Below, piece by piece: positions 1,154-39,054 of a stretch of 64,000 bases of DNA. The stretch is from Escherichia coli. GTDB taxonomy: Bacteria; Pseudomonadota; Gammaproteobacteria; Enterobacterales; Enterobacteriaceae. A model generated the notes under the pieces. That model worked only from the letters and a program-made list of their open reading frames with translations, made no database searches and was not told where the DNA came from. The stretch lies in the NCBI RefSeq assembly GCF_048403405.1, contig NZ_CP183129.1. One strand, 5' to 3'. Numbering within the stretch: the first letter of the stretch is position 1; each line of letters begins with the position of its first letter. A program made the position numbers and the translations under genes.

Positions 1154-2563
1154 ATGTCCGCTGAACACGTACTGACGATGCTGAACGAGCACGAAGTGAA
1201 GTTTGTTGATTTGCGCTTCACCGATACCAAAGGTAAAGAACAGCACGTCACTATCCCTGCTCATCAGGTGAATGCTGAATTCTTCGAAGAAGGCAAAATG
1301 TTTGACGGCTCCTCGATTGGCGGCTGGAAAGGCATTAACGAATCCGACATGGTGCTGATGCCAGACGCATCCACCGCAGTGATTGATCCGTTCTTCGCCG
1401 ATTCTACCCTGATTATCCGTTGCGACATCCTTGAACCTGGTACCCTGCAAGGCTATGACCGTGACCCGCGCTCCATCGCGAAGCGCGCTGAAGATTACCT
1501 GCGTTCCACTGGCATTGCCGACACCGTACTGTTCGGGCCAGAACCTGAATTCTTCCTGTTCGATGACATCCGTTTCGGATCTTCTATCTCCGGTTCCCAC
1601 GTTGCTATCGACGATATCGAAGGCGCATGGAACTCCTCCACCCAATATGAAGGTGGTAACAAAGGTCACCGTCCGGCAGTGAAAGGCGGTTACTTCCCGG
1701 TTCCGCCGGTAGACTCTGCTCAGGATATTCGTTCTGAAATGTGTCTGGTGATGGAACAGATGGGTCTGGTGGTTGAAGCCCATCACCACGAAGTAGCGAC
1801 TGCTGGTCAGAACGAAGTGGCTACCCGCTTCAATACCATGACCAAAAAAGCTGACGAAATTCAGATCTACAAATATGTTGTGCACAACGTAGCGCACCGC
1901 TTCGGTAAAACCGCGACCTTTATGCCAAAACCGATGTTCGGTGATAACGGCTCCGGTATGCACTGCCACATGTCGCTGTCTAAAAACGGCGTCAACCTGT
2001 TCGCAGGCGACAAATACGCAGGTCTGTCTGAGCAGGCGCTGTACTATATTGGCGGCGTAATCAAACACGCGAAAGCGATTAATGCCCTGGCAAACCCGAC
2101 CACCAACTCTTACAAGCGTCTGGTCCCGGGCTACGAAGCACCGGTAATGCTGGCTTACTCTGCACGCAACCGTTCTGCGTCTATCCGTATTCCGGTGGTT
2201 TCTTCTCCGAAAGCACGTCGTATCGAAGTACGTTTCCCGGATCCGGCGGCTAACCCGTACCTGTGCTTTGCTGCCCTGCTGATGGCCGGTCTTGATGGTA
2301 TCAAGAACAAGATCCATCCGGGCGAAGCCATGGACAAAAACCTGTATGACCTGCCGCCGGAAGAAGCGAAAGAGATCCCACAGGTTGCTGGTTCTCTGGA
2401 AGAAGCACTGAACGAACTGGATCTGGACCGCGAGTTCCTGAAAGCCGGTGGCGTGTTCACTGATGAAGCGATCGATGCGTACATCGCTCTGCGTCGCGAA
2501 GAAGATGACCGCGTGCGTATGACTCCGCATCCGGTAGAGTTTGAGCTGTACTACAGCGTCTAA
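1154..2563 (+). CDS. glnA: glutamine synthetase
   Basis: 469-aa ORF starting [31 protein letters not shown]; SD GGAGAG upstream; classic GlnA sequence. Confidence 0.97.
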
Positions 2564-2580
2564 TAGTTGAAGTTGTACTA

Positions 2581-2600
2581 CCCGGCGCAACAACGCCGGG
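2581..2600 (+). terminator. glnA stem-loop (CCCGGCG-caacaa-CGCCGGG), weak or partial terminator in the glnA-glnL spacer
   Basis: 7-bp GC stem right after the glnA stop; no strong T-run, consistent with known read-through into glnLG. Confidence 0.45.
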
Positions 2601-2736
2601 ATTTAGTTGCCGTGGAAACTTTCAGCCCATCTCTGCATGGGCTTTTTTCTCCGTCAATTCTCTGATGCTTCGCGCTTTTTATCCGTAAAAAGCTATAATG
2701 CACTAAAATGGTGCAACCTGTTCAGGAGACTGCTTT

Positions 2737-3786
2737 ATGGCAACAGGCACGCAGCCCGATGCTGGGCAGATCCTCAACTCGCTGATTAACAGTATTTTGT
2801 TAATCGATGACAACCTGGCGATCCATTACGCCAACCCCGCCGCGCAACAACTGCTCGCCCAAAGCTCCCGCAAATTGTTTGGTACGCCGTTACCGGAACT
2901 GTTGAGCTACTTCTCATTAAATATCGAGCTGATGCAAGAAAGTCTGGAGGCGGGGCAAGGCTTTACCGATAACGAAGTGACGCTGGTCATCGACGGGCGC
3001 TCGCATATCCTTTCTGTGACGGCCCAGCGTATGCCGGACGGCATGATCCTGCTGGAGATGGCTCCGATGGATAACCAGCGCCGCTTAAGTCAGGAACAGC
3101 TACAGCACGCCCAGCAGGTTGCTGCCCGTGATTTAGTGCGCGGCCTGGCACATGAGATTAAAAATCCGCTTGGCGGTTTACGTGGCGCGGCGCAGCTGCT
3201 CAGCAAAGCATTACCTGACCCGTCACTACTCGAATATACCAAAGTGATTATCGAACAGGCGGACCGGCTGCGAAATCTGGTCGACCGTCTGTTGGGACCG
3301 CAACTGCCCGGTACGCGCGTTACCGAAAGTATTCATAAAGTGGCTGAACGCGTGGTGACGCTGGTGTCGATGGAACTGCCGGACAACGTGCGGTTGATTC
3401 GTGATTACGACCCCAGCCTGCCGGAACTGGCGCACGACCCGGATCAAATTGAGCAAGTGCTCCTGAATATTGTGCGCAATGCGCTACAGGCGCTGGGGCC
3501 AGAGGGTGGTGAAATCATTCTGCGTACCCGCACAGCTTTCCAACTGACCTTACACGGCGAGCGTTATCGGCTGGCGGCGCGAATTGATGTGGAAGATAAC
3601 GGGCCAGGTATTCCGCCTCATTTGCAGGATACACTGTTTTACCCGATGGTCAGCGGCCGCGAAGGTGGCACCGGGCTTGGCTTATCCATCGCCCGTAATT
3701 TGATTGATCAGCATTCAGGCAAAATTGAATTTACCAGTTGGCCAGGTCATACCGAGTTCTCGGTTTACCTGCCTATCAGGAAATAA
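2737..3786 (+). CDS. glnL: nitrogen regulation sensor histidine kinase NtrB (NRII)
   Basis: 349-aa [22 protein letters not shown]...; HisKA/HATPase motifs ([13 protein letters not shown]); glnLp -10 TATAAT at 2694-2699 overlaps an NtrC-like site GCACTAAAATGGTGCA (2700-2715). Confidence 0.95.
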
Positions 3787-7690: not shown

Positions 7691-7759
7691 AATGGTTCGT
7701 CTTTTAGCCGTTTTATTCAGTATAGATTTGCGGCGGAATCTAACAGAAAGCAAGCAAAG

Positions 7760-8001
7760 AAAAAAGGCGACAGATTACTCTGTCGCCTTTTTTCCTGACT
7801 CATAACCCTTAACGGGTCTTACAATCCTTGCAGGCCGCCAACACACCCTGTTTTTCCATTAGCCGGAACAATCCGTGTTGATTCCATTTCCGTTTAATTA
7901 CGTCTCCGGACGTTTGTCTTCCTGACAATCCTCTGTCTTCGCCTCCTGGCGCTCCTGACCCTCATCCTGAGTCATTGTTCCTGTTAGCGTCCTCGCTCTA
8001 T
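7760..8001 (-). ncRNA. csrC: CsrC small RNA (CsrA-sequestering)
   Basis: Minus strand reads ATAGAGCGAGGACGCTAACAGGAACAATGACTCAGGATGAGGGTCAGGAGCG... with many GGA/AGGA motifs, ending in the terminator GGCGACAGAGTAATCTGTCGCC-TTTTTT; lies between engB and yihI as in E. coli. Confidence 0.72.
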
Positions 8002-9029: not shown

Positions 9030-9138
9030 TAAAAAACGCCCCAGTCATTACTGACTGGGGCGGCTAAAATATTCAGCCAAATCCGATTACGTGAAGTAAA
9101 AGGTCTGAAAGATAGAACATCTTACCTCTGTACCCTAC
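9030..9138 (-). ncRNA. spf: Spot 42 small RNA
   Basis: Minus strand reads GTAGGGTACAGAGGTAAGATGTTCTATCTTTCAGACCTTTTACTTCACGTAATCGGATTTGGCTGAATATTTTAGCCGCCCCAGTCAGTAATGACTGGGGCG-TTTTTTATT; matches the recalled Spot 42 sequence and its terminator; immediately downstream of polA. Confidence 0.88.
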
Positions 9139-9285
9139 GCGACTAACTTTACTCTTTTTTGTTCAGTTCAGAAAGCACTTTTTGTAATTTTTTTTCAGTT
9201 GTTGCATAGGAATTTCTAATAGCCATCACAAAACGTGACAGCTTATGTTGCTTACTTACGAAAAAAGGGCATGTTCAGGCGAATC

Positions 9286-18231: not shown

Positions 18232-18351
18232 ATGCCTGGCAGTTCCCTACTCTCGCATGGGGAGACCCCACACTACCATCGGCGCTACGGCGTTTCACTT
18301 CTGAGTTCGGCATGGGGTCAGGTGGGACCACCGCGCTAAGGCCGCCAGGCA
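18232..18351 (-). rRNA. rrfA: 5S ribosomal RNA
   Basis: 120 nt; minus strand reads TGCCTGGCGGCC...GGGAACTGCCAGGCAT, matching E. coli 5S; rrnA assigned from flanking hemG and mobB and the Ile/Ala spacer tRNAs. Confidence 0.95.
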
Positions 18352-18445
18352 AATTCTGTTTTATTAACCCGCTTGTCGCCGGTTAATTTAATCTGTATCA
18401 GGCTGAAAATCTTCTCTCAATCCGCCAAAACAGCTTCGGCGTTGT

Positions 18446-21349
<2,904 letters not shown>

Positions 21350-21533
21350 TCACAACCCGAAGATGTTTCTTTCGATTCATCATCGTGTTGCGAAAATTTG
21401 AGAGACTCACGAACAACTTTCATTGTTCAGTGTTTCAATTTTCAGCTTGATCCAGATTTTTAAAGAGCAAAACTTCGCAGTGAACCTTTGCAGGTACACT
21501 CTGAAGTATTTTTTATTTAATCACTACAGAGAT

Positions 21534-21609
21534 GGTGGAGCTATGCGGGATCGAACCGCAGACCTCCTGCGTGCAAAGCAGGCGCTCTCCCAGCTGAGCT
21601 ATAGCCCCA
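21534..21609 (-). tRNA. alaT: tRNA-Ala (anticodon UGC)
   Basis: Minus strand GGGGCTATAGCTCAGCTGGGAGAGCGCCTGCTTTGCACGCAGGAGGTCTGCGGTTCGATCCCGCATAGCTCCACCA, 76 nt, in the 16S-23S spacer. Confidence 0.96.
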
Positions 21610-21651
21610 TAACATGTAGTTAAAACCTCTTCAAATTTGCGGTGCAAATTT

Positions 21652-21728
<77 letters not shown>

Positions 21729-21795
21729 TAGAGGTTTTACTGCTCATTTTCATCAGACAATCTGTGTGAGCACTGCAAAGCACAGTTCTTTAAGG

Positions 21796-23337
<1,542 letters not shown>

Positions 23338-36811: not shown

Positions 36812-39054
<2,243 letters not shown>

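Follow-up and report, generated by a model that had tools for sequence, protein, structure and literature searches.

The glnA–glnL spacer of an Escherichia coli genome, read as the short GlnZ (EsrF) small RNA followed by an NtrC-repressed glnL promoter

Layout of the spacer and its identity

The analysed stretch (hereafter the window) comprises 64,000 nucleotides of E. coli DNA. Its glnA coding sequence occupies positions 1154–2563 of the plus strand, as judged from the list of open reading frames, the sequence itself and the glnA annotation of identical E. coli genomes, and ends with a TAA stop codon at 2561–2563. The ATG start codon of glnL follows on the same strand at 2737–2739 behind a Shine–Dalgarno sequence AGGAGA at 2724–2729, which lies in a segment (GGAGACTGCT) kept in an alignment of Enterobacterales spacers. 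The two genes are thus separated by a spacer of 173 nt (2564–2736). Two small open reading frames over this spacer (2578–2703 on the minus strand, 41 aa; 2607–2789 on the plus strand, 60 aa) were judged to be mechanical.

The spacer is 100% identical to that of O157:H7 and UPEC genomes. A query with bases 2500–2800 gave 100% identity to O157:H7, ST131 and many more strains, and found a match in 5,425 of 5,426 complete E. coli genomes. Three types of glnA 3'UTR have been described in the species, with lengths of 197 nt (K-12), 85 nt (O157) and 230 nt (O111) (Miyakoshi et al., eLife 2022, PMC9731577); the short form is Class I and has been equated with EHEC EsrF (Walling et al.). Among the 5,426 complete genomes, the short allele is present in 2,857 (~53%), the K-12-type allele in 1,571 and the O111-type allele in about 993–994. 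The short-allele spacer is without annotation by PGAP/RefSeq in such genomes, and no GlnZ family matched when the spacer was run against Rfam 15 with a permissive E-value; a chance-level anti-hemB match in the same scan was discarded.

We are highly confident that the spacer consists of two known, adjoining regulatory modules of the enterobacterial glnA–glnZ–glnLG locus: the GlnZ small RNA (sRNA) and the NtrC-repressed glnL promoter (glnLp). Sequence identity, structures, complementarity and conservation were observed directly in this analysis, and expression, dependence on Hfq and RNase E, target repression and NtrC binding are taken from the literature, so that the functional steps given for the window are carried over from published studies of the same or nearly the same sequence. 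Both elements are already well studied, and the substance of the finding is known.

GlnZ and the glnA terminator

On the strength of its sequence, we identify the segment 2564–2648 (plus strand), i.e. the entire glnA 3'UTR directly behind the glnA stop codon, as GlnZ in its 85-nt O157-type (Class I) form, which other work has named EsrF. Two lines of evidence fix its extent: (i) RACE mapping of EsrF gave exactly 85 nt, from the T adjoining the glnA stop codon to the T-run of the terminator (Jia et al. 2021, PMC8092317), and these ends correspond to 2564 and 2648 of the window; and (ii) the RefSeq glnZ gene of MG1655 (b4836) stops 89 nt short of the glnL ATG, again corresponding to position 2648. 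The stretch 2564–2650 (87 nt) folds into a more stable RNA than its shuffled versions (z = −2.25). A comparison with EsrF/GlnZ of EHEC O157:H7 shows the same spacer, 85-nt extent, seed, terminator and position after the glnA stop, with no difference detected. An earlier reading of the sequence alone had proposed that the glnA 3'UTR could yield an sRNA and should be compared with published coordinates; both the length and the end points agree, and the sRNA turns out to be this exact allele of GlnZ.

The 3' end of the RNA is formed by a Rho-independent terminator at 2624–2648 with a stem AGCCCAT/ATGGGCT (2624–2630/2637–2643), a loop CTCTGC and a run of six T (2643–2648). It was detected by a terminator scan, RNA folding (−9.5 kcal/mol) and an inverted-repeat search, and is the canonical intrinsic terminator of glnA; presumably, it also serves as the Hfq-binding 3' module of GlnZ. 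The stem and TTTTTTCTCC are invariant in an alignment of eight Enterobacterales, with loops that vary. The same alignment yields no covariation support for the stem, and covariation is uninformative here because the stem is invariant. In the literature, the glnA terminator is described as having 6 U and 'moderate strength', read-through of it is the classical source of extra glnLG expression under nitrogen limitation, and its deletion in K-12 leaves NtrC levels unchanged (PMC9731577).

A second hairpin lies upstream, with seven G-C pairs (CCCGGCG/CGCCGGG, 2581–2587/2594–2600, plus strand) and a 6-nt loop CAACAA, and was found by both the terminator and inverted-repeat scans (hereafter hairpin 1). 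The sequence-only reading had located it correctly at 2581–2600, but took it for the only terminator-like hairpin after glnA and ascribed read-through into glnLG to a weak terminator without a T-run. The first claim is contradicted by the hairpin at 2624–2643 with its TTTTTT up to 2648, and the second is wrong as stated, its reasoning having been attached to the wrong hairpin while the real terminator was overlooked. It is highly improbable that hairpin 1 is a weak, T-poor glnA terminator whose leakiness sets glnLG read-through, although it is GC-strong (−13.8 kcal/mol) and passes a lenient terminator scan by virtue of its tail ATTTAGTT, which reads as A-UUU-AG-UU and places five T among the next eight bases. 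The canonical terminator is 24 nt further downstream and the mapped RNA 3' end is 2648 rather than ~2605. Moreover, hairpin 1 is missing in the 3'UTRs of the K-12 type and of several other Enterobacterales, in contrast to the invariant terminator at 2624–2648. The mapped 85-nt RNA contains hairpin 1, which means that the polymerase passes it. We take hairpin 1 to be an internal 5' stem-loop of GlnZ and very probably not the glnA terminator; we infer that its role is structural.

Comparison of spacers across the Enterobacterales indicates a similar hairpin in Enterobacter cloacae. In Pantoea, Serratia oryzae and an Enterobacter MAG, the corresponding place holds unrelated hairpins. In Enterobacter sp. 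Ag1 and Acerihabitans there is no hairpin at this place, and only ~18 nt separate the stop codon from the seed. Owing to these differing hairpins and lengths, the stop-to-seed segment is highly variable across the order, and it also differs among all three E. coli alleles.

RNase E-like motifs (GGAUU/GAUUU, consensus RN↓WUU) were found by a motif scan at 2599–2604 (plus strand), directly after hairpin 1. A further such motif was seen by eye at 2538–2542 inside glnA, and the scan found none at the published 5' end (2564), a point against the GlnZ model. Cleavage at 2601/2602 would, from this analysis, release a short GlnZ of 47–48 nt. In Salmonella, an ~50-nt RNase E product (GlnZ2) suffices for sucA repression, and a 'processed species' of O157 GlnZ has been observed (PMC9731577). 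It is possible but doubtful that hairpin 1 and the RNase E-like site split the transcript into two stabilised products, a glnA mRNA with a new, hairpin-capped 3' end and a 47-nt minimal GlnZ (2602–2648) as the main form of this allele, and that, separately, an undescribed regulator acts at an inverted repeat further downstream (2674–2693, see below).

Between hairpin 1 and the terminator, a conserved block GTTGCCGTGGAAACTTT (2606–2622, plus strand) surrounds the GlnZ core seed TTGCCGTGGAAA at 2607–2618 (plus strand), which matches the published seed 5'-UUGCCGUGGAAA-3' exactly. The seed centre CGUGGA is predicted to be unpaired in the 85-nt RNA with a probability above 0.85. We then evaluated pairing of the seed region (2601–2623) with MG1655 5'UTRs by RNAduplex, using 500 shuffled seeds as a control. 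Complementarity to all three published targets was found in silico: sucA pairs at −48 to −27 relative to the start codon (−20.4 kcal/mol; shuffled seeds at least as good in 8/500 cases), aceE at −105 to −91 (−20.8 kcal/mol; 1/500) and glnP at −22 to −11 (−18.4 kcal/mol; 19/500). The predicted aceE site fits the published C-99G compensatory mutation, and the glnP site fits the published location 'just upstream of the SD'. Homologues were sought with a 14-mer seed in a 298 Gb genome collection, which gave 8 true glnA–glnL loci among the at least 120 loci listed, the 14-mer being too unspecific for a collection of this size. These loci were used to assess conservation. For the seed itself the argument is circular, because the seed served to retrieve the loci from the other species, and only the flanking elements provide independent evidence.

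Published work offers two accounts of how this RNA arises and acts. In the first, GlnZ accumulates under nitrogen limitation in dependence on NtrC and the glnA promoter, RNase E, helped by Hfq, cuts it out of the glnA mRNA (a release required for sucA repression), and it represses sucA, glnP and aceE. O157-type GlnZ is expressed when swapped into K-12, with no change in the levels of GlnA and NtrC (PMC9731577), and plasmid-expressed EHEC EsrF represses the K-12 targets glnP, sucA and aceE (Walling et al.). As a counterpoint, Jia et al. (2021, PMC8092317) describe EsrF as an 85-nt primary transcript from its own promoter within the glnA 3' end, independent of the glnA promoter and induced by high ammonium, that acts mainly by binding flhB mRNA and activating flhB, thereby promoting EHEC motility and virulence. 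We regard this second account as improbable for the window. Its evidence consists of TEX resistance, an abundance that deletion of the glnA promoter leaves unchanged and expression when the upstream region is placed on a promoter-less plasmid (PMC8092317), together with a promoter within K-12 glnA that was predicted from dRNA-seq (Walling et al.). However, our consensus scan of 2300–3000 finds no σ70-like promoter upstream of 2564, and two independent groups see O157 GlnZ/EsrF induced by low, not high, nitrogen. The same two groups find that K-12 GlnZ is lost in ntrC and glnA-promoter deletions and that a PglnZ–lacZ fusion is nearly inactive, and Miyakoshi et al. explicitly disagree with Jia et al. 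(PMC9731577).

Following the first account, we propose that nitrogen limitation would lead phosphorylated NtrC to activate the σ54 promoter glnAp2 upstream of glnA, with most transcription ending at the intrinsic terminator 2624–2648. RNase E may then free the 3'UTR from the glnA mRNA, and the single-stranded seed region (2606–2622), exposed between hairpin 1 and the terminator, would pair with the sucA, glnP and aceE 5'UTRs and repress them. Nitrogen assimilation would thus be tied to how 2-oxoglutarate and pyruvate are used.

The glnL promoter and its NtrC operator

The second module lies between the terminator and glnL. A σ70-type −10 hexamer TATAAT, perfect in sequence, occupies 2694–2699 (plus strand), and a 17-bp dyad TGCACTAAAATGGTGCA at 2699–2715 was recognised as an NtrC (NRI) operator from its sequence, consensus match and conservation. 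The two elements share the T at 2699 (a 1-base overlap), so that the dyad overlaps the core promoter, and GCACTAAAATGGTGCA covers the remaining positions 2700–2715. The dyad agrees with the NtrC consensus TGCACCAnnnTGGTGCA (quoted in PMC8743547) in 16 of 17 positions. No other exact match to TGCACY-N5-GGTGCA occurs in the 64 kb, where 0.02 would be expected; when one mismatch is allowed, the only other matches in the window are the glnA enhancer sites at 933–949 and 965–981.

A consensus scan of 2300–3000 returned no σ70-like sites, and neither scanning nor direct reading found a −35 hexamer with at least 4/6 matches 16–18 bp upstream of the −10 element. The assignment of glnLp is based on the −10 hexamer, conservation and the literature, since a recognisable −35 element is missing. 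This absence fits a weak basal promoter and is not counted against glnLp, because the K-12-type sequence is identical here: from 2624 through glnL, the window and the K-12 type do not differ. Among eight Enterobacterales spacers, the −10 hexamer recurs at the same place as TATAAT, TATACT or TACAAT. The half-sites TGCACT...GTGC are invariant, with the same juxtaposition to the −10 in seven other species and GGAGACTGCT behind them, and the stretch between terminator and promoter is poorly conserved.

The glnLp transcription start, which we take to be ~33 nt before the glnL ATG (~2705–2706), would fall within the dyad. A dyad over both the −10 hexamer and this expected start fits negative autoregulation. 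Passages in PMC9731577 and PMC3870243, both citing Ueno-Nishio 1984, describe glnLp as a σ70 promoter repressed by NtrC. An NtrC ChIP-seq peak for glnLG in K-12, just upstream of glnL (4054381–4054461), is annotated as 'direct binding' (PMC4066584), and by our own conversion between genome versions this interval covers 2699–2715. Compared with the operator–promoter of glnALG (Ueno-Nishio et al. 1984), the window shows the same NtrC-repressed σ70 arrangement in identical K-12-type sequence, and no difference was found. These observations support the interpretation, made from sequence, that NtrC acts on glnLp through this site, the classical operator of negative autoregulation. They also uphold the sequence-only reading on this point, which had placed TATAAT at 2694–2699 and an NtrC-type palindrome at 2700–2715, both correctly, and had suggested autoregulation.

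It is hardly conceivable that the dyad instead works from a distance, as an enhancer-type NtrC site activating a σ54 promoter. NtrC is best known as a σ54 activator, and the half-sites are identical to those of the enhancers upstream of glnA (933–949 and 965–981). However, the literature has glnLp as σ70-dependent and NtrC-repressed, the position of the dyad (22 nt before the glnL ATG and overlapping the −10) is the geometry of occlusion, and no GG-N10-GC σ54 motif was seen by eye between the dyad and glnL. With the dyad taken as a repressing operator, NtrC bound to this single high-affinity site would occlude RNA polymerase and impose a low set-point on its own basal production, and the extra glnLG expression under nitrogen limitation would come from read-through of the moderate glnA terminator.

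A perfect 8-bp inverted repeat (GCTTTTTA-TCCG-TAAAAAGC), found by an inverted-repeat search, abuts the glnLp −10 hexamer at 2674–2693. Citrobacter werkmanii and E. albertii retain the repeat, and Enterobacter has a degenerate version.

Comparison with related alleles and significance of the locus

K-12 GlnZ (b4836, 194 nt, Class III) shares with the window the seed, the terminator, the DNA from 2624 to glnL and the targets. In K-12, the stop codon is followed at once by the seed, and a long REP-derived stem-loop lies between the seed and the terminator; in the window, a short GC hairpin precedes the seed, which itself adjoins the terminator. Salmonella GlnZ1/GlnZ2 (Class II) resembles the window in that the seed adjoins the terminator, and its ~50-nt RNase E product is an analogue of the 47-nt form that we infer for the window. 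By contrast, its 3'UTR is 185 nt long, and an extra G beside the seed removes regulation of aceE and adds that of deoD.

In the O111-type allele, 145 bp are inserted exactly after position 2600, right behind hairpin 1 (402–546 of locus L002). This insert is a low-copy element and not a high-copy repeat. An ~86%-identical copy occurs elsewhere on the chromosome in another 285 genomes. The O111 insertion is given as 98 nt in PMC9731577, compared with the 145-bp difference seen here. An Rfam scan of the K-12- and O111-type alleles returned only a weak naRNA4/REP-like match, located in the K-12 insert. In the frameshift-rich assembly of strain AMSHJX01 (L003, 1440–1500), glnA is missing from the site, where the final ~38 bp of the O111-type insert adjoin a truncated clsB; this junction is either a rearrangement or a misassembly.

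The Rfam family RF02766 (Ysr49, Yersinia sRNA 49) aligns over 2544–2648 with 34.1 bits, below its gathering score of 95. As in the window, GCCGuGGAAACUUU precedes a GCCCAUC...GAUGGGCUUUUU terminator in its consensus, but its 5' half is unrelated. Because the consensus holds both the GlnZ seed and the terminator, Ysr49 is probably the Yersinia orthologue of GlnZ. The single relevant paper to mention Ysr49 does not connect it with GlnZ.

The locus ties nitrogen status to carbon flux: through GlnZ, glnA induction reduces the 2-oxoglutarate and pyruvate dehydrogenases as well as the import of glutamine, and the basal level of NtrBC is set through the glnLp operator. Each of these points has been published already, and no new biology is added here. 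The practical value lies in annotation, given a short GlnZ allele that is unannotated in PGAP and without a GlnZ family match in Rfam 15; because these resources leave it unnamed, readers who work from sequence alone will keep 'rediscovering' it. A concrete error has also been corrected, in that the real glnA terminator had been missed.

Several further features were observed elsewhere in the window. The glnA upstream control region (933–1070) is intact, with two high-affinity NtrC dyads (933–949 and 965–981), further half-site-like repeats at ~985–1025 and the σ54 promoter glnAp2 (TTGGCACAGATTTCGCT) at ~1054–1070. An Rfam match to the ES222 sRNA (133 bits; gathering score 62) lies at 863–970 on the minus strand, opposite in orientation to glnA, and overlaps both enhancer dyads. 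Other RNA genes on the minus strand, at 7748–8001, 9030–9148, 18234–23337 and 38449–38700, are CsrC, Spot 42, an rRNA operon with two tRNAs and a StyR-44 element, and an 'Erse' sRNA match.
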